From positions 1 to 6,156 of IMG/VR virus record IMGVR_UViG_3300020030_000031: DNA of 6,156 bases. One strand, given 5' to 3'. This DNA comes from a virus. Under the pieces are notes generated by a model that worked only from the letters and a program-made list of their open reading frames with translations, did no database searches and was not told where the DNA came from. This document shows, piece by piece, positions 1 through 6,156 of the stretch (positions are counted from its first letter, which is position 1; the number at the start of each line of letters is the position of its first letter). Position numbers and translations under genes: made by a program.

Positions 1-121
1 AATCAAACATGAGAATAAGGGTATTATCAAAGAAATCAACTCGGAAATGAGGTAGACTACCACAGGTAGCGACGAGTTCATAAATTTCCGAATGGTCAAC
101 GTAGAGCGAATCGCTAATGAA
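1..121. repeat. Terminal direct repeat, copy 1; identical to 6036..6156 (assembly overlap of a circular genome)
   Basis: I compared 1..121 with 6036..6156 base by base and found 121/121 identity. The offset of 6035 nt gives the unit genome length. Confidence 0.95.
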
Positions 122-271
122 AGAACTATTTAGGAAACGCGCGATGGGGGTGTCCGTGAGAGCGCTGAGCGGAAGGGATACAAATTGATCATCCTTGAGG
201 TAACCTACCTGGGCGAAGTCAATTTTAAGAGCCGGGTTAATTCGACGAATAACAACATGAATCTGTGTCAT
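1..271 (-). CDS. Hypothetical protein ORF107, N-terminal 90 codons. The CDS crosses the circular junction and ends at 5983, for 107 aa in total.
   Basis: This ORF is absent from the supplied track because it runs off the window edge. A minus-strand ATG at 271..269 opens a frame that stays open for 90 codons (MTQIHVVIRRINPALKIDFAQVGYLKDDQFVSLPLSALTDTPIARFLNSSFISDSLYVDHSEIYELVATCGSLPHFRVDFFDNTLILMFD). Position 1 is the first base of the next codon. Through the repeat the frame continues 6035->5986 (FNLDCDEGPSEKERKRS) to TAA at 5985..5983. It starts 11 nt downstream of ORF106 on the same strand. Composition looks globular and I recognise no family. Confidence 0.5.
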   Translation of the reverse strand, partial: MTQIHVVIRRINPALKIDFAQVGYLKDDQFVSLPLSALTDTPIARFLNSSFISDSLYVDHSEIYELVATCGSLPHFRVDFFDNTLILMFD

Positions 272-282
272 AGTAATGTAAT

Positions 283-603
283 TTAAATTTGAGATTGAAA
301 TCTGAGATAAAAACGCTTCCAGGCGTCGGAATACTTTCTCCAAAAATCATAACCCTCGGGCGTCGTGTCAAACAAGAAAGCGGTAGAAATGAGGTAGGTA
401 GGGCCTAGACTCGGGTTGCAAAGAGAACGCCGAATGTGGGCGCGCAAACGATCACGAAAACCCCCGTAAGGCGAAACGACGACATCGTAGTTCGTCTTAA
501 AAGCAACGAATATTCCTTGGCGGACGAGCCACTCAGTAAAAGCGTAATCGAGCACGTCGACAATCAAGTCGCCAGCCTTGAAGTACTTACTTCTTTTTTT
601 CAT
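283..603 (-). CDS. Hypothetical basic protein, 106 aa (ORF106)
   Basis: ATG-initiated ORF on the coding strand with TAA at 285..283. About 17 K/R versus 10 D/E. It is tightly packed with the downstream ORF107 (11-nt spacer). I recognise no motif. Confidence 0.6.
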   Translation of the reverse strand: MKKRSKYFKAGDLIVDVLDYAFTEWLVRQGIFVAFKTNYDVVVSPYGGFRDRLRAHIRRSLCNPSLGPTYLISTAFLFDTTPEGYDFWRKYSDAWKRFYLRFQSQI

Positions 604-672
604 AGTATTGTGGTTATTGGTTTACAACGCAAAGATGCAACAAAAAGAACAAACGATAAAGTTCAAAAAGCC

Positions 673-693
673 GAGGGAATTGTTCAATTCCTC
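673..693 (-). terminator. Weak hairpin plus T-run overlapping the VP2 stop codon; possible leaky intrinsic terminator
   Basis: The sense strand reads GAGGAATT-GAAC-AATTC(C)CTC, then GGC, then TTTTTG. That is an 8-bp AT-rich stem with one bulge, followed by a 5-T run after a 3-nt spacer. The stem is weak and overlaps the TGA at 686..684. Confidence 0.25.
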
Positions 694-1940
694 CTAAAAT
701 AACTGCGGCGGGTGTATGTAGCACCAATTTGATCTCCGGAAGGGCCGTAAACGTCGCGCATCTCGTCGTAACCAGCAGGTGAGGCTGCGCCTTTGGTAAG
801 AGCTACACTGCTAATAGCGAGAGCCCCGGCAAGGGCCGTGCGAGCCATCGAATAACCAAAAGCATTCTTTTCTGATCGGTTAGAAAACCATTGAGCAGAA
901 AGACTCTGCGACGCATTGGCGGCGGCAATACCCACAAGATGTTCGTGTATCTGACGGCCAGTTAATTTAACAGTTTTACCAGTAGGCTTGCCTGATTCAG
1001 TAACCTGGGGGACTTCAATTTCGGCCTCCCAGTTGAGGCGAAACCACTCACGAAGATCAGACAGACGAACTTTGGCTATAGCAAACTCGGCATTCGCGAG
1101 GTCGCCTGTTGCGGCAGAACTGTAGGCGGCAGCGTAATCGCGAGCAATTTGTGCGGCGTAAATTTGATCAAAATACTTTGAATTGAATTCCCTGATCTGA
1201 ACAGCCTCCTCGACATGTTTACTGTATTGGGCAACAAAATCTTGAAATTTATAAGTAGCCATCAAATCTGCGTATTCAGAGTCGGCCATATGAATATCAG
1301 CAAGAGCGCGATTAAGATCAGCAAGAGCGGCAGCGTTGTTGACGTCGTGCGTACGAATCTGCTTATCCAACTCGTCAATGTCTTTACGCCACTCAACAGT
1401 ATGTGTATTTCCACGAAGCATAGCAGCCTCGGCGTTGTCACGATTAGAAGCAGCATCGTTACGATCAACCGTAGAACGCGCAAGCATATTCTGCGCAATA
1501 GCAGTAGGATCGGCAGTAGCAAAACCACCGGGAGCAACGGGCGAGCCGCCCGAGGGACCAGAGGCAGAGGGCATAGAAGCAGAGCCGCCGGACATGGTGG
1601 CGTTAACGCCGACGCCCGAGGAGCCAAGTACGGCAGCGGGCGTTACGCCAGCTTTCAAGTAGCGGTCGAAAACTTTCGTAGGGTCATTATATGCATTCTC
1701 GTAATCAAACTGTTTCTGCCAATTAGCATAGGAAAGTTCAGACTGCTTCTGCATTTGCTCGAGAGCATACTTTTGCTGAAGCTTCATTTGTTTTTGCTGA
1801 AAACGCCATTGGCGACGGGCGTTCATACCGCCAAAAAGCTGGCCGAGAGCACCGGTAATTAGACCGGTCGCGCCAGTAGATGCAGACGATTGACCAAGAG
1901 CCTGTCCAAAAGAAGCAGCAGCAACAGCAGGAATAGGCAT
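684..1940 (-). CDS. VP2: Microviridae VP2 (phiX174 H-like) DNA pilot / minor capsid protein, 418 aa
   Basis: The N-terminus is Ala/Gly-rich (MPIPAVAAASFGQALGQ...GALGQLFGG) and is followed by a Q/K-rich helical segment. The segment YENAYNDPTKVFDRYLKAGVTPAAVLG matches my recollection of the conserved VP2 core of gokusho/alpa-like microviruses (N-x-Y-N-x-P ... R-x-x-x-A-G-(L/V)-(N/T)-P). A G/S/P low-complexity linker (GGSASMPSASGPSGGSPVAPGG) follows. Size and the position next to the capsid module fit. Confidence 0.8.
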   Translation of the reverse strand: MPIPAVAAASFGQALGQSSASTGATGLITGALGQLFGGMNARRQWRFQQKQMKLQQKYALEQMQKQSELSYANWQKQFDYENAYNDPTKVFDRYLKAGVTPAAVLGSSGVGVNATMSGGSASMPSASGPSGGSPVAPGGFATADPTAIAQNMLARSTVDRNDAASNRDNAEAAMLRGNTHTVEWRKDIDELDKQIRTHDVNNAAALADLNRALADIHMADSEYADLMATYKFQDFVAQYSKHVEEAVQIREFNSKYFDQIYAAQIARDYAAAYSSAATGDLANAEFAIAKVRLSDLREWFRLNWEAEIEVPQVTESGKPTGKTVKLTGRQIHEHLVGIAAANASQSLSAQWFSNRSEKNAFGYSMARTALAGALAISSVALTKGAASPAGYDEMRDVYGPSGDQIGATYTRRSYFRRN

Positions 1941-1941
1941 A

Positions 1942-2133
1942 CTAAATGTGAGTTAAATTGTTAGAACGAATAATGTAGTCAACGCGAACAGTGTCGATAT
2001 GAACGCCGCTACGCTGCATCCTAGCTTGAGCTGAACAAGAAGCAAGAAAAAAAGTAGCCAACGCAGCAATAATAGATGAAATGAGCGTCCAAAAAGCCTT
2101 TGATTTATAGAAAGGTTGTTTAACGTCTGACAT
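1942..2133 (-). CDS. Small predicted lipoprotein, 63 aa (signal peptide plus lipobox L-A-S-C; about 31-aa mature peptide)
   Basis: The protein is MSDVKQPFYKSKAFWTLISSIIAALATFFLAS|CSAQARMQRSGVHIDTVRVDYIIRSNNLTHI. It has a Lys-containing n-region, a 17-residue hydrophobic core, and a lipobox L30-A31-S32-C33 (codons 2046..2035). ATG is at 2133..2131. TAG at 1944..1942 lies one nucleotide before the VP2 ATG (TAG-T-ATG). Confidence 0.6.
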   Translation of the reverse strand: MSDVKQPFYKSKAFWTLISSIIAALATFFLASCSAQARMQRSGVHIDTVRVDYIIRSNNLTHI

Positions 2134-2154
2134 GATATTAAAAATTTAGGGGAA

Positions 2155-2339
2155 GCTACGGTGCCGCACCCTCACTACGTTCGGGGCGGTTCTCCGAACC
2201 GCGAAATGCGTCACCTCGCCACAATGGTGTAAACAAATTGAATAAAGAACGATAGAAAAATGCGCGGCCACTCCTGCAATCGTTACCAATAACCTTTAGC
2301 AATTCACGAACTCTTGCAAAAGGGGTCCGCGCACGTAGC
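2155..2339. other. 185-nt domain closed by an imperfect inverted repeat (2155..2172 pairs with 2321..2339)
   Basis: On the plus strand the pairs are 2155-2160 GCTACG with 2334-2339 CGTAGC, 2162-2164 TGC with 2331-2333 GCA, 2166-2167 GC with 2329-2330 GC, and 2168-2171 ACCC with 2323-2326 GGGT. T2172 can pair with A2321. That is about 16 bp with three small bulges, and the ends coincide with the ATG and TAG of ORF61. Confidence 0.45.
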
Positions 2340-2341
2340 AT
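2156..2341 (-). CDS. Possible small arginine-rich protein, 61 aa (ORF61). The alternative reading is a non-coding structured region.
   Basis: ATG at 2341..2339 and TAG at 2158..2156. About 12 R/K versus 6 D/E. There are 22-nt spacers to both neighbouring genes, so accepting it would make the genome uniformly compact. A small basic DNA-condensing protein (phiX174 J analogue) is expected in microviruses. Against it, first-codon-position purine content is only about half, and the interval is dominated by secondary structure. Confidence 0.35.
   Translation of the reverse strand: MLRARTPFARVRELLKVIGNDCRSGRAFFYRSLFNLFTPLWRGDAFRGSENRPERSEGAAP
2180..2205. other. GC-rich hairpin inside the 2134..2363 region
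   Basis: The plus strand reads TTCG-GGG-CGGTTC-TCC-GAACCG-CGAA. That is a 6-bp stem (7 bp if G2186 pairs with C2202) with a 3-nt loop, extended by 4 bp across a bulge. Confidence 0.5.
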
Positions 2342-2363
2342 ATATCGTCAAGTAAAGAATGTA

Positions 2364-2660
2364 CTATTTTTCTTCAGACTTAGAGGTCTTCGCAGCAGCA
2401 TTCGATCTATCTATTTCTGAATCAATGAGTTCCTGACCAACCTCGAGACCATCGAACTTATCCATACGGGAGAAGGAATTAGGGTCGAAATCAATCTCGG
2501 GATTGAATTTTTCGCCCTTGTCGAAATCAGACGAGGACGCCTCGACATCTGGGCGACCAGGAAGAACATCGACGGAACCAGAACCGTTAAGAACAGAAAG
2601 AATACGCTGACCACGAGAAACATAGGTAGGAGCGTCCTCAAGTAACCAATTAAGTGCCAT
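2364..2660 (-). CDS. Acidic 98-aa protein immediately downstream of VP1; candidate scaffolding protein (VP3/D/B-like role by position and charge only)
   Basis: ATG at 2660..2658 lies 12 nt after the VP1 stop, and TAG is at 2366..2364. About 20 D/E versus 11 K/R, with repeated D-F-D / E-I-D motifs (SSSDFDKGEKFNPEIDFDPNSF...DSEIDR). I recognise no sequence family. Confidence 0.6.
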   Translation of the reverse strand: MALNWLLEDAPTYVSRGQRILSVLNGSGSVDVLPGRPDVEASSSDFDKGEKFNPEIDFDPNSFSRMDKFDGLEVGQELIDSEIDRSNAAAKTSKSEEK

Positions 2661-2672
2661 AAAATCAGTGTA

Positions 2673-4463
2673 TTAACGATTAGACAAACGGGTTGCAAAT
2701 GTTTTATTAACCAAGTTCTTCTTCTGGACAGAATACGAAATATTGACAAAGAAATTATCCTCTAGCTTGGAGGCAAACGGGGCGTTTACCTGATCAATAT
2801 CCACAAACAAAAGGGAATAATACTGATTATAGCTCGCCGACAGAACGCGCTGCTGAACCCAATAAGAATAAAGAGGAATGTTGTTATAGGCTTTTTGAAA
2901 TCGAGTCAGCTGGCCAAGAACCTCATCAAACGAGGACCGAAACTCATTGAAACACGGTTCGTAGGCTACAGCTTCTGAGGCCGAGGTGGTTCCGAATCCG
3001 AATTGAAATCCGGGAACATCCTGGTATCCAATATCATTATAGATCGGATTAAAATAATCGGCACCAGTATAATGAAGGTAGTCGGGATAAACACCTGCCC
3101 AATAGTAGACGGGGCGAATACTCAGCATATCAATCATATAGCCAGGCTCGCGGAAGTAATAAGATTGACGACGACCGAGGCGATCATTGAAGGCGATTGC
3201 ACCACCTTGTTGTCCCAGGGGGCCATTTACGCTTGGACCAGAAAAATTATTTTGTCCGGCCTGATTCATGACAATCTGAACGTTAACTGTCTGGGATGCG
3301 CTAAACAACAATTTGGGCCGATCGACGTGTTCGATTTTCGAAGCAAAAAAAGTCTCCAGCCAGTCGCTGTAACGAGAACCTCCAGCGCCGAGCAGATCCT
3401 TGTATTCCTGAAGACGCGAAGCAATAGCCAGCTGCGGCACGGTCGAGACACCGGACATGGAAACACCCTCGGAGCTACCGACAGGAAGCAATCGGCTATA
3501 GCGATCGGGATTCGAAGGTATAACGGCCAGCGGATGGGCGACAAGGAACGCTCCAAGCGTAGTAACAGTCGTAGAGGCAGCGCCAACAGCGAATTGATTT
3601 GCGGGACCCGCGGTGGACAGCGAAGTGTTTCCGGGATAAATGGTAGAGACGGGGTAGCCATCTCTGGATGCGGTAATCGTAGCGCCGAGATCTGAAAGTA
3701 ATATCTGCGAAAAAAGATTTCCCCTGTTATATGTATTGTTCGACGACGACACAGCCGAAGGATAAAACTGACTCTCAAAATAAGCATCGAGGAATTCGAG
3801 GTTTCCAAATCTTTGCGAGAAAAACCTCGACGTGTCACCGAACTGAAGAGTATTATACGCGGTACCGGTGCTGTTCGGGATGAAATACCAACTACTAGGC
3901 CAAGCGAAAGAATAAAGTCCCCACTGGGAATAACTATAATAATTGCGAACGATGTCCCAATAAGCGAGATAAGAATCGGCGGTACACCAGCCTAAAGGAT
4001 ACCCCAACTGGGCCGTTGTAAGATTAGCAGTCACAGGGACATTACTCGAGGTCGGGGTCGGGATTGACCCAGGAATGACACGCAACCAACGAAGCAGCGA
4101 ATTAGAATAAGGATAATTATTAGTCGTAAACTCGTAACTACCCGTAGAAGAAGCAGCAATAAAATTCAAACTCAAATCGTTCATATCAAACTTACTGCTA
4201 TTCGTCCGCATTTCAGGGTGATACAACTGGAGAGGCACCCAAAAACGATGCAAACGAATAGTATAGGGATTGAACGTCGGGACGGCGAGCGGATTACTAC
4301 GAACGTCGATCCCCTGCTCGATAGATACACGATCCCGAGCGTTAATAAAATCAATTCGCACCGGATATAAAATACCCGGCGTACACGTAAAGGCCTTACT
4401 CTCAGGGACATCGTAACGAGAGTAGCCATTGACGGCATGTGAAATAAAGGGCTGTTTTCCCAT
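2673..4463 (-). CDS. VP1: Microviridae major capsid protein VP1 (phiX174 F-like), 596 aa
   Basis: This is the largest ORF. The N-terminal pattern FTCTPGILYPV...RSNPLAVPTF...IRLHRFWVPLQLYHPEM matches the conserved microvirus capsid N-terminus as I recall it (G-x-L-x-P ... R-x-x-P-L-x-x-P ... H-x-F-(F/W)-V-P-x-x-L). The C-terminal region is rich in aromatics and Tyr (YYFREPGYMIDMLSIRPVYYW). Its size suits the gokusho/alpa-like groups, which carry large loop insertions. Confidence 0.93.
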   Translation of the reverse strand: MGKQPFISHAVNGYSRYDVPESKAFTCTPGILYPVRIDFINARDRVSIEQGIDVRSNPLAVPTFNPYTIRLHRFWVPLQLYHPEMRTNSSKFDMNDLSLNFIAASSTGSYEFTTNNYPYSNSLLRWLRVIPGSIPTPTSSNVPVTANLTTAQLGYPLGWCTADSYLAYWDIVRNYYSYSQWGLYSFAWPSSWYFIPNSTGTAYNTLQFGDTSRFFSQRFGNLEFLDAYFESQFYPSAVSSSNNTYNRGNLFSQILLSDLGATITASRDGYPVSTIYPGNTSLSTAGPANQFAVGAASTTVTTLGAFLVAHPLAVIPSNPDRYSRLLPVGSSEGVSMSGVSTVPQLAIASRLQEYKDLLGAGGSRYSDWLETFFASKIEHVDRPKLLFSASQTVNVQIVMNQAGQNNFSGPSVNGPLGQQGGAIAFNDRLGRRQSYYFREPGYMIDMLSIRPVYYWAGVYPDYLHYTGADYFNPIYNDIGYQDVPGFQFGFGTTSASEAVAYEPCFNEFRSSFDEVLGQLTRFQKAYNNIPLYSYWVQQRVLSASYNQYYSLLFVDIDQVNAPFASKLEDNFFVNISYSVQKKNLVNKTFATRLSNR

Positions 4464-4466
4464 AAA

Positions 4467-5537
4467 TTAAATGTTTAGTTGAAGTTTATAATGATCTCTC
4501 CAAAACTGAAGAATGTCCAGGTCTAGCCAAGTAGGTGGGTCGAAATCCGGCATCTTACGAGAGGACGCAGCGAAACGCATTATTTGCTTTTGCTCCCACG
4601 TATACGACGCTCTACAGGATACGGAGGAATTGAGGCCGAACCGCTCAACGCACAAAGACACAATACGCTTAACCAGAGAAGACTCGCTAAAACGTGAATA
4701 AGCATCAGCAGCGGTAATCGAGCGAATAACGTCGTCTTCCGGTTTAAGGTATCTAAGGTAATACCGAGGAATCGAGTAGTTATAATTGACGCGCTTCTCA
4801 AAATCGAAATAAGACCACGTCGAAGTACGAGCAGAAGGGCGAGGCTGATAACCAAGAAAATCACCAACGCCAGCAGATACGAATTTTCGCGTATAACGGC
4901 GATGTTGGAGGAGGCAAGATAAAGGTGTAAGGTTTCCATCTATGGTAACATATTTGTCCGAAATTTCTTCGGGATTAAATTGAATCTGTTTAGTAACATA
5001 CTTAACGCAATAACGAGCACGCTTATGAGTCGCCTTCGCCAACCACACAAAACCAAGATCTCGAACAGCCGATCGAATCTCGTTATACAGACAATTCGTG
5101 CCGAATAAAAAACCATGGAAATGCAGACGAGGCTCAGAGCTTATTTCCGGGTGAGTCCCAAACTCCTGGAAAAACGCGTGCTTGAAAGAATGTCCGAGCG
5201 TATGGCGGACGCGTTCGTTCCACCGTCGAATAAACGTAGAGGGGTTCTGTAATGCTTCATCGTAATACTTAGGAGCTATGGTTATTGTAATAAAAATAGC
5301 CTGCTGGGACTCGGCTTTACAACGAGCGAGTTCGCGCTCCAAGCGAACGAACCAATCATTACGCTGACGACGCAGACAGTCTTCACACTTTCCACACGGG
5401 ACCATGAGCCACTGACGCGCGATGTCCCAGGGGCGGAGCGCCAAAGCGGACTTTGCAACGTCCGAGCCATCACGACAGGGATTCTTCTTGTCGAAATAGC
5501 GACGATTACGTATCCATATGGGCGACGAACAAGGCAT
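4467..5537 (-). CDS. VP4: Rolling-circle replication initiator VP4 (phiX174 A-like, HUH endonuclease superfamily), 356 aa
   Basis: Motif order is diagnostic. N-terminal PCSSPIWIRN is followed by VPCGKCEDCLRRQRNDW. Motif I is AIFITITI. The HUH motif is L-H139-F-H141-GFLF (H codons 5123..5121 and 5117..5115). The double-tyrosine motif Y176-CVK-Y180-VTK (codons 5012..5010 and 5000..4998) has the same Y-x-x-K-Y-x-x-K layout as phiX174 gpA. Confidence 0.93.
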   Translation of the reverse strand: MPCSSPIWIRNRRYFDKKNPCRDGSDVAKSALALRPWDIARQWLMVPCGKCEDCLRRQRNDWFVRLERELARCKAESQQAIFITITIAPKYYDEALQNPSTFIRRWNERVRHTLGHSFKHAFFQEFGTHPEISSEPRLHFHGFLFGTNCLYNEIRSAVRDLGFVWLAKATHKRARYCVKYVTKQIQFNPEEISDKYVTIDGNLTPLSCLLQHRRYTRKFVSAGVGDFLGYQPRPSARTSTWSYFDFEKRVNYNYSIPRYYLRYLKPEDDVIRSITAADAYSRFSESSLVKRIVSLCVERFGLNSSVSCRASYTWEQKQIMRFAASSRKMPDFDPPTWLDLDILQFWRDHYKLQLNI

Positions 5538-5737
5538 TACAGGAGGCTTCTAAGACAGTCAAATCTAATAGCGGGATAATCGAGACGACAGCGAATGAGG
5601 TAATCATTAGCGGGTTCCTCGTCGGAAAACCAAGCGATAACAACTCGCTTTTTACCACGGTACGCTCCAATAGAAAAACGGTAGGGAATACTGTTAATCA
5701 CAGGAGAAAAACGGGGGCGAAAATCAAATATATCCAT
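5537..5737 (-). CDS. Hypothetical 66-aa protein overlapping the VP4 start (TAATG)
   Basis: ATG is at 5737..5735. The stop TAA at 5539..5537 shares its last A with the VP4 ATG at 5537..5535 (sense TAATG), an arrangement typical of translational coupling. It is the first gene after the structured intergenic region. I recognise no family. Confidence 0.55.
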   Translation of the reverse strand: MDIFDFRPRFSPVINSIPYRFSIGAYRGKKRVVIAWFSDEEPANDYLIRCRLDYPAIRFDCLRSLL

Positions 5738-5756
5738 AATCGTTAAACAATACTTT

Positions 5757-5785
5757 GCGCTTCGAAAGACGGTACTTTCGAGCGC
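5757..5785. other. Stem-loop (11 bp, one bulged T, 6-nt loop) 19 nt upstream of the ORF66 start
   Basis: The plus strand reads GCGC-T-TCGAAAG-ACGGTA-CTTTCGA-GCGC. Pairs are 5757-5760 with 5782-5785 and 5762-5768 with 5775-5781. Confidence 0.6.
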
Positions 5786-5805
5786 GAGAACTACTTCGTT
5801 CCGCC

Positions 5806-5846
5806 GGCCGACCGCCTAACGGCGGGGACGCTCCGCGTCTTCGGCC
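5806..5846. other. GC-rich three-way junction (Y-shaped) fold, 41 nt
   Basis: The outer stem is GGCCGA (5806-5811) with TCGGCC (5841-5846). Arm 1 is CCGCC-TAAC-GGCGG (5812-5825). Arm 2 is GACGC-TCC-GCGTC (5827-5839). That is 16 bp, 14 of them G:C, with single unpaired bases at 5826 and 5840. An extra CCGCC at 5801-5805 permits an alternative pairing. Confidence 0.6.
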
Positions 5847-5874
5847 TCCATGGCTCCACTTCGTGAGTCTATAT

Positions 5875-5890
5875 ACCGGATAAATCCGGT
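5875..5890. other. Short perfect hairpin ACCGGA-TAAA-TCCGGT
   Basis: It has a 6-bp stem and a 4-nt A/T loop. It lies between the terminator and the three-way junction. Confidence 0.5.
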
Positions 5891-5902
5891 GAGTTTGCGG
5901 AC

Positions 5903-5937
5903 AAAAACTCCCAGGGAGAGAAAACCTCTCCCGGGAG
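5903..5937 (-). terminator. Rho-independent terminator ending the genome-long minus-strand transcription unit
   Basis: The sense strand reads CTCCCGGGAGAGG-TTTT-CTCTCCC(T)GGGAG followed directly by TTTTTGT. That is a 12-bp GC-rich stem (5908-5912 with 5933-5937, and 5914-5920 with 5926-5932, with one bulge at 5913) and a 5-T tract (5907..5903). It lies 46 nt downstream of the ORF107 stop. Confidence 0.7.
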
Positions 5938-5982
5938 CATCACAGTTAAAGAACTCTTCCACCAAGAGGACGGGTAACGATC

Positions 5983-6156
5983 TTAGCTCCTCTTCCTTTC
6001 TTTTTCCGACGGGCCTTCATCACAATCAAGATTAAAATCAAACATGAGAATAAGGGTATTATCAAAGAAATCAACTCGGAAATGAGGTAGACTACCACAG
6101 GTAGCGACGAGTTCATAAATTTCCGAATGGTCAACGTAGAGCGAATCGCTAATGAA
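5983..6156 (-). CDS. C-terminal part of ORF107 (same CDS as 1..271). Bases 6036..6156 duplicate 1..121 and 5983..6035 is the unique 3' end.
   Basis: The frame is continuous through the repeat and ends ...LILMFDFNLDCDEGPSEKERKRS with TAA at 5985..5983. Confidence 0.5.
   Translation of the reverse strand, partial: FISDSLYVDHSEIYELVATCGSLPHFRVDFFDNTLILMFDFNLDCDEGPSEKERKRS
6036..6156. repeat. Terminal direct repeat, copy 2; identical to 1..121
   Basis: 121/121 identity with the first 121 bases of the window. Confidence 0.95.

Follow-up and report, generated by a model that had tools for sequence, protein, structure and literature searches.

In the isolated Microviridae phiX174 and G4, the complementary-strand origins both lie in the F-G intergenic region: that of phiX174 is the n'/primosome assembly site, which depends on PriA, and that of G4 consists of three hairpins and depends on primase. 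To our knowledge, complementary-strand origins have been established experimentally only for coliphages of the phiX174/G4 type, and not for the microviruses that dominate gut viromes. Single-strand origins (sso) of other replicons are folded elements with a fixed orientation towards the displaced strand; the host supplies the priming, and they are not absolutely required (PMC4595007). Within the microviruses, the uncultivated reekeekee- and roodoodoo-microviruses carry conserved hairpins upstream of the gene for the replication initiation protein (Rep), with compensatory substitutions in both arms, which were tentatively assigned to negative-strand synthesis (PMC9865509). Here, the gap ahead of ORF66 and VP4 (the Rep gene) was analysed in a 6,156-nt stretch of viral DNA, positions 1 to 6,156 of IMG/VR record IMGVR_UViG_3300020030_000031 (hereafter the window). 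The window consists of the 6035-nt circular genome of a gut microvirus and a terminal redundancy of 121 nt. Three parts make up the region: the tail of a basic open reading frame (ORF), a predicted intrinsic terminator and a conserved, exchangeable cassette of folded DNA. We give an even chance to the proposal that this cassette is a complementary-strand (single-strand) origin that would be recognised by the priming enzymes of Bacteroidales.

The cassette takes up everything after the terminator (~135 nt; 5890..5757) and is laid out as a small hairpin, the conserved GGTATATA, a large GC-rich fold that comes in one of two related variants, and an invariant hairpin (Table 1). The four folds that the earlier note had drawn by inspection were recovered base for base, the last of them ending 19 nt ahead of the ORF66 ATG at 5737, and the thermodynamic folding that it had proposed as a check returned all four in the minimum-energy as well as the centroid structures. 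Folded as DNA, the sense strand reached -54.0 kcal/mol, as compared with -35.0 +/- 3.4 for 200 dinucleotide shuffles (z -5.6; 0 of 200 as good), with z scores of -4.8 for the sense strand as RNA and -5.1 for the opposite strand as DNA. Moreover, the most stable 200-nt segment of the genome is 5935..5736 (-47, versus a mean of -21.6 and a standard deviation of 6.2 over 61 overlapping segments). The extensive intrastrand pairing in a non-coding stretch that marks single-strand origins is therefore found here.

Table 1. Features of the studied region, of the second gap and of related prophages. Coordinates are those of the window, except in the last row.
Feature	Coordinates	Strand	Basis or remark
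Very basic 24-aa ORF MKARRKKKGRGAKIVTRPLGGRVL	6020..5946	-	stop TAA 5948..5946; peptide conserved
Predicted intrinsic terminator, GC-rich stem-loop plus TTTTT	5937..5903	-	folding, terminator scan, relatives
Small hairpin ACCGGA/TTTA/TCCGGT	5890..5875	-	runs into conserved GGTATATA (5877..5870); left end of cassette
Y-junction (type A central domain)	core 5846..5806; with GCC/GGC helix 5854..5803	-	16 bp, 14 G:C
11-bp hairpin, loop TACCGT, one bulged A	5785..5757	-	near-invariant; right end of cassette
AT-rich spacer from cassette to ORF66 start codon	5738..5756	-	sequence; varies among relatives
phiX174-ori-like motif CTTGACGATATATG, preceded by CTTTA	2339..2352	-	start of near-invariant block 2243..2378
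dif-like sites of L013-type prophages	L166 3225 and 9138; L062 1985 and 7822; L013 2532..2559		core ATTTAACATAATGA...

In GenBank, a single full homologue of the gap was found (MG945664, 78.6% identity), together with a 42-nt match of the last hairpin in MG945515. Pattern scans of IMG/VR yielded many more relatives, from which 82 distinct homologous gap sequences were aligned (alignment A1, of type A). Across this alignment, 93.0% of the cells of the four-element structure are paired, as compared with 89.6 +/- 0.2% in shuffles (0 of 500 as high) and 36-46% when the partners were slid, and fourteen pairs carry double-sided changes. The comparison of relatives for compensatory changes, which the earlier note had suggested, thus bore out the terminator, the small hairpin and the Y-junction, each of which keeps its pairing in this way. 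In the terminator, the 82 relatives have 76 distinct stem-loop sequences, every one of which folds as RNA (-19 to -30 kcal/mol), and the T-run persists, with double-sided changes in the stem such as that of pair 55/84 (UA in 42 sequences, CG in 33). The small-hairpin stem covaries at pair 114/121 (GC45, AU36), 36 sequences having switched from G-C to A-T, and elsewhere (in type B and inverted-clade copies) it takes the forms CTGGC/GCCAG, CCAGC/GCTGG, TCGC/GCGA and ACC/GGT; in the adjoining GGTATATA, T113 and A114 are invariant and the GG is at least 90% conserved. In the Y-junction, the four helices are fully paired in all 82 sequences, despite compensatory replacement at pairs 156/195 (CG44 GC37 AU1), 157/194 (CG44 UA37 GC1), 177/189 (GC43 AU30 CG9), 163/173 (AU80 GC2) and 180/186 (CG79 UA2 UG1). 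Its base stem occurs as GC/GC, CT/AG, CC/GG, CG/CG and AC/GT, and one arm as C-G, G-C or A-T, while in the other A-T is rarely replaced by G-C. The 11-bp hairpin is almost without variation.

The cassette behaves as an exchangeable module. Its central domain is either the Y-junction of the window (type A) or a long imperfect hairpin (type B; z -4.3) that has compensatory pairs of its own in 27 distinct sequences. Types A and B are each found in window-like and in MG945515-like genomes, whose VP4 proteins are only ~30% identical, and type B is also present in L013-type phages (VP4 ~27% identical), so that a cassette at least 90% identical is found across microvirus lineages whose Reps are only 25-30% identical. 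Four lineages whose VP4 proteins do not exceed 30% identity share the 20-nt top of the invariant hairpin, TCGAAAGTACCGTCTTTCGA, without a single difference; in the fourth, the L173 type, this top stands on a different lower stem (CCGGCC/GGCCGG). Furthermore, the 11-bp hairpin (hairpin 4) is precisely deleted, and present nowhere else, in nine relatives, of which seven are complete circular genomes by their terminal redundancy, and the gap of a further genome (L152) has other content, without hairpin 4 and without a type A or B central domain. Judged by these deletions, the A/B swaps and L152, the cassette is non-essential and exchangeable between replicons, as is typical of single-strand origins. 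Such free exchange between unrelated microviruses would be expected if the target were a host factor rather than the phage Rep, and the combination of divergent Reps with a near-identical cassette fits a host target better. A 17-mer scan of viral contigs for type B gave mostly chance matches in large contigs. Separately, an 8.3-kb metagenome contig (L195) holds two hairpin/cassette copies (at 495 and 3149) ~2.65 kb apart, together with a duplicated phage segment, which represents either a partial tandem duplication or the assembly of two variants.

The orientation of the cassette was then compared with strand composition. In MG945515-like phages it is inverted relative to the genes (5 viral-contig or GenBank genomes and 10 metagenome loci), so that the hairpin end faces the end of VP2; among these inverted copies is a type A copy 92% identical to that of the window. 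On the T-rich strand, the hairpin reads TACCGT in all 88 viral-contig and GenBank genomes that have it (TA skew +0.13 to +0.38), while the genes lie on that strand in 83 of the 88 and on the opposite one in 5. The metagenome scan contributed another 30 loci in which hairpin and genes share a strand, and the 10 opposite ones, all of the MG945515 type, with consistent skews. At four-fold sites, the sense strand of the window (A.106, C.282, G.178, T.433) is mirrored by the non-coding strand of MG945515 (A.088, C.277, G.179, T.455). Third codon positions of single-stranded DNA (ssDNA) phages are enriched in T, for which C->T deamination in the single-stranded state has been held responsible (PMC3278643); our composition controls, phiX174 and Chp2, gave T of.63 and.51. 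Since the cassette is inverted along with strand composition, it appears to follow the strand asymmetry and not transcription, and this argues against a general role as messenger RNA (mRNA) leader and fits either a single-strand origin or a nick site.

The earlier note had offered an RNA-level role as an alternative, in which the element would be a 5' leader of the ORF66/VP4 mRNA that controls stability, translation or attenuation. In the window's clade, the cassette does lie on the sense strand between the terminator and the first gene, its fold is stable as RNA (z -4.8), and covariation alone cannot separate RNA from ssDNA. As a general explanation, however, this role is contradicted by the clade in which the cassette is inverted relative to VP4 and the other genes; in addition, Rfam covariance models found no match on either strand of the whole window at E <= 1, and the last hairpin stops 19 nt short of the ATG, which leaves the start codon uncovered. 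We consider a leader function improbable. Alternatively, the cassette could be an independent gene for a small non-coding RNA, transcribed along the T-rich strand from its own promoter in either orientation to the protein genes. The structure, the covariation and the cassette-like behaviour would suit such a gene, as would a hairpin that follows the cassette in the inverted clade. Yet no promoter was found ahead of the cassette: a scan for sigma-70-type promoters gave sites at chance level and none within the studied gap, and the Bacteroidetes-type promoter TTTG...TAnnTTTG is absent from both gaps of the genome. No T-run follows hairpin 4 in the window, Rfam again offers no match, and an RNA gene gives no reason for an orientation that tracks strand composition, which leaves it a small chance in our judgement.

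A third possibility concerns the double strand: the 11-6-11 palindrome would be the operator of a dimeric repressor and TATATA the -10 box of a VP4 promoter. The cassette is always beside the VP4 start, in both orientations, and TATATA, itself a palindrome, is found ahead of VP4 in every type, ~25 nt or ~130 nt away. Compensatory changes that keep intrastrand stems are nevertheless unexpected for protein sites on duplex DNA, the asymmetric TACCGT loop is conserved in one orientation on the T-rich strand, and T is rare at position six of the would-be -10 box. A control region of this kind is accordingly held to be quite improbable.

A nick site for VP4, which the earlier note had also considered possible in this region, agrees with the orientation data, as a nick site must follow the T-rich strand. 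In this alternative the cassette would be a viral-strand origin: VP4 would bind the small or the invariant hairpin and nick beside it (GGT|ATATA and the TACCGT loop are examples of possible sites), and the cassette would set which strand is displaced and packaged. The arrangement of a hairpin followed by TATATA recurs in the VP4-adjacent gap of types A and B and of L152, L154 and L155, T113 and A114 of GGTATATA are invariant, and the cassette always adjoins the VP4 start. On the other hand, CTTGATA occurs nowhere in the window, and the region is without the conserved CTTG|ATA-type core on the viral strand that is expected of a Rep nick site. A nick site should also be indispensable and co-vary with Rep, whereas parts of the cassette are deleted or replaced, hairpin 4 being lost from complete circular genomes and L152 lacking both hairpin 4 and the type A/B domain, and Reps that are 25-30% identical share a cassette at least 90% identical. 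Moreover, L152, L155 and L157 show TATATA with reversed flanks on their T-rich strand, and a stronger candidate lies in the other gap (gap 2, 2134..2363) and at the same position in the A-rich clade described below. For these reasons a viral-strand origin in the studied region is thought unlikely.

The viral-strand origin of phiX174 is CAACTTG|ATATTAATAAC, which is nicked by gene A protein. The present genome resembles that system in having a related Rep (VP4) and a conserved ACTTGA-containing motif, but the motif is in gap 2 (2339..2357), outside the studied region. It belongs to a non-coding block, 2243..2378, with almost no variation among 90 distinct relatives; this block is matched at up to 95.6% identity in 63 GenBank records and surpasses the proteins in conservation. 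Read on the T-rich strand, it opens with CTTTACTTGACGATATATG and includes the phiX174-ori-like CTTTACTTGA; the motif nearest to the phiX core is CTTTACTTGAC at 2357..2347, with a long hairpin and a T-run after it. The block is absent from the MG945515-like and L013-like lineages. At the equivalent position, the clade with A-rich coding strands has a conserved CCTT(TA)CTTG(A/T)TATATAAGTATAATCGT on its T-rich non-coding strand, with CTTTACTTGA in common. In one member, PQ007260, the motif matches the phiX174 origin over ACTTGATAT, nick position included; by our own estimate, a 9-nt run between a motif of ~25 nt and the 30-nt origin has a probability of ~1e-3. A search by simple pattern found no phiX-like motif in the L013 and L173 types. 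On sequence grounds, the motif at 2339..2357 is thus a better candidate for the VP4 nick site than the studied region, with cleavage expected at CTTTACTTG|A, and the suggestion that VP4 nicks within the studied region, which lacks a CTTGATA-type motif and whose invariant hairpin is missing from complete relatives, probably has to be moved to gap 2. Given this better candidate for the double-strand origin (dso), the origin of the second strand is the most economical role left for the cassette.

The phages with this cassette also provide a link to a probable host. Microviruses are known to use dif-like sites (PMC3091885), a role of such sites in lysogeny has been proposed for Bacteroidetes microviruses, and the 28-29-bp palindromic architecture of the 11-6-11(12) hairpin would fit a dif-like attP, a site of XerC/XerD action for lysogeny. 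The likeness is limited to layout and is contradicted by junctions, host genomes and a scan of the window. In L013-type prophages the crossover is at a true dif-like core, ATTTAACATAATGAATAGTATTATATCA, ~530 nt off, and the hairpin is intact inside the prophage; the XerD arm of the ATTTAACATAATGA... core equals that of Escherichia coli dif. The 20-mer of the hairpin has no exact-match chromosomal counterpart in 185,579 bacterial genomes except for chance matches in coding sequence, and the best match of the window to the att core has 7 mismatches in 22 positions, within the range of shuffled sequence. An attP function was accordingly rejected and is regarded as barely credible. A host repeat (REP/PATE-like) was likewise rejected: the 20-mer occurs in only 4 of the 185,579 genomes, always in coding sequence. 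Three of these matches (L121 7514, L123 3184 and L124 5767) fall in an S-K-D-G-T-F-D segment, which we take to be ribosomal protein S2 (rpsB), and the fourth (L122) in another coding sequence; we judge them coincidental, as 596 Gb should yield about one match by chance. A sequence that precedes the L013 cassette looked tRNA-like, but ARAGORN found no tRNA there. The L013-type microviruses themselves are prophages in long gut contigs, beside Alistipes relA/spoT, with a flanking protein 98% identical to an Alistipes protein. This integration argues for Alistipes as the host of phages with the same cassette.

Under the favoured interpretation, the cassette would work at the DNA level on the T-rich strand, taken as the virion strand. 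After injection, it would fold into the small hairpin, the GC-rich Y-junction and the invariant hairpin, which would stay free of single-stranded DNA-binding protein (SSB) and serve as the recognition site for priming enzymes of the host. RNA polymerase and primase are both conceivable here, as is a PriA-type primosome, for which the Y-junction would mimic a branched fork; a primer would be made, and host polymerase would turn the single strand into the replicative form. The cassette would swap among unrelated microviruses of the same host group, probably Alistipes/Bacteroidales.

Several resemblances to described origins are consistent with this scheme. As in the complementary-strand origins of phiX174 and G4, an intergenic cluster of hairpins lies on the presumed virion strand of a microvirus, its orientation seems tied to the single strand and its proposed target is a host factor (the comparison also draws on section 3.8 of PMC9865509). 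It differs from them in having no sequence similarity, in its position between the last gene and the Rep operon, in its probable Bacteroidales host, and in combining a covarying three-way junction with a sequence-invariant hairpin in two exchangeable variants. It also resembles ssoA, ssoT, ssoU, ssoW and sso1 of ICEBs1, all of them folded non-coding DNA of ~150-300 nt that is active only as single strand and modular between replicons (PMC4595007); those belong to plasmids and conjugative elements, whereas the replicon here is a phage genome. The hairpins of the reekeekee- and roodoodoo-microviruses are single or double, simple and confined to one clade, in contrast to a multi-domain cassette that spans clades and whose orientation could be compared with composition. 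With respect to the earlier note's proposal of a complementary-strand origin, the region is indeed structured, covarying, exchanged, partly dispensable and oriented with the T-rich strand, while the priming itself is what we infer.

Against this interpretation stands, first, that conjecture enters at every step of the priming role, and that equating the T-rich strand with the packaged one is an assumption drawn from composition. The coding strand of the isolated gokushovirus phiMH2K (L160, AF306496) is A-rich (at four-fold sites, A.47, T.24 and G.07), which makes this phage either a possible counter-example to that assumption or another case of interest. The orientation comparison comprises about four independent lineages, one of them inverted, so that its outcome has about a 1-in-8 chance under a null of random orientation; furthermore, recombination through shared flanks would keep orientation automatically when types A and B are swapped. 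G.T mismatches outnumber A.C in the cassette stems (28 versus 5), a count meant as a test of the folding strand, and this excess is suggestive, yet it could be explained by C->T mutation bias. (The corresponding counts for the terminator were unusable owing to alignment register.) A blastn search for similarity to plasmid single-strand origins gave no match to plasmids. The loop TACCGT agrees with the CS-6 box of ssoA, TAGCGT, at five of six bases, and for a counterpart of RSB (both sequences in PMC4598088) only a loose resemblance at GCCGAAGA was seen by eye, no scan having been run; the cassette thus shows no clear match to the RSB and the CS-6 (TAGCGT) in a terminal loop that define the ssoA subtype. 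Finally, in the window's clade the cassette may also be part of the ORF66/VP4 leader, with an added RNA role.

In the genome around the gap, GC is 46.9%, and the minus strand carries all genes, in the order ORF66, VP4/Rep, VP1, a 98-aa ORF, gap 2, a 63-aa ORF, VP2, a 106-aa ORF, a 107-aa ORF and the studied gap. VP4 matches PF23343, the PHROG replication initiation protein and, weakly, Phage_GPA; VP1 matches Phage_F, and VP2 is the pilot protein. The terminal redundancy is exact (1..121 = 6036..6156) and has the same length in most IMG/VR relatives, which is the assembly signature of a circular genome and not a biological repeat. The start codons of ORF66, VP1 and VP2 are preceded by AT-rich sequence with no Shine-Dalgarno motif discernible by eye, consistent with a Bacteroidota host.

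The limits of the gap required correction. A 245-nt non-coding region at 5738-5982 had been described, and this holds for 5738..5945 only: in the aligned relatives, the 5' end varies in a codon-like pattern, thus 5946..5982 is coding and the true gap is 208 nt. The 37 coding nucleotides encode the C-terminus of the 24-aa MKARRKKKGRGAKIVTRPLGGRVL, whose ORF shares sequence with the end of the 107-aa ORF but is read in a different frame. Most of the relatives examined keep the peptide, while the DNA differs at third codon positions (alignment A1, columns 12-45). A PHROG search with the 24-aa peptide found no match; it is possibly a DNA-binding peptide like J of phiX174 or its gokushovirus counterpart VP8. 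At 208 nt, the gap is no longer the largest of the genome, as had been stated, since gap 2 has 230 nt. The strong terminator that had been read at its start was upheld: the stem-loop folds, its inner stem and T-run were detected by a terminator scan, stem-loop and T-run are conserved, and the element starts 8 nt past the last stop codon. It thus has the features of an intrinsic terminator, and is predicted to end the gene block. An upstream ORF of 11 codons (ATGGAGGCCGAAGAC...) was discarded, as its ATG is ACG or GTG in 13 relatives and substitutions keep the stems but not the codons.

The mirrored composition extends beyond MG945515. The coding strand is rich in A and poor in T (four-fold sites: A.34-.65, T.06-.18) in the eleven genomes checked, namely L004 (MG945515), L014, L033, L050, L151, L152, L154 and L155-L158; a VP1 search for this clade returned 126 GenBank records, of which five were checked. 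Mirrored composition together with a phiX-ori-like motif on the non-coding strand was also seen in the distant MG945634, PQ007260, PP511536 and the Antarctic MN311493. The inversion of the cassette, the mirrored composition and the conserved ACTTGATAT / CTTGTTATATA motif on the non-coding strand of MG945515-like phages lead to a tentative proposal, which we hold to be possible but somewhat doubtful: the A-rich clade may package the strand complementary to its mRNAs, as negative-sense Microviridae. Polarity would then be set by movable origins in the gaps and not by the genes, and the cassette would be a portable origin of the second strand, directed at the host and always carried by the virion strand. 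In the literature available to us, nothing was found on negative-sense or A-rich microviruses or on the virion polarity of phiMH2K.

The cassette is a defined element of ~135 nt, for which the stems and the invariant loops are specified and natural variants exist through deletion and swapping; with such an element and a probable host group (Alistipes/Bacteroidales), the question of priming becomes directly testable. Further leads are the candidate Rep nick site in the other gap and the evidence for movement of putative origin modules between otherwise unrelated microviruses. Moreover, the compositional signal suggests that genome polarity may be opposite in one large clade, which, if true, would change both the annotation of these phages and the interpretation of ssDNA viromes.

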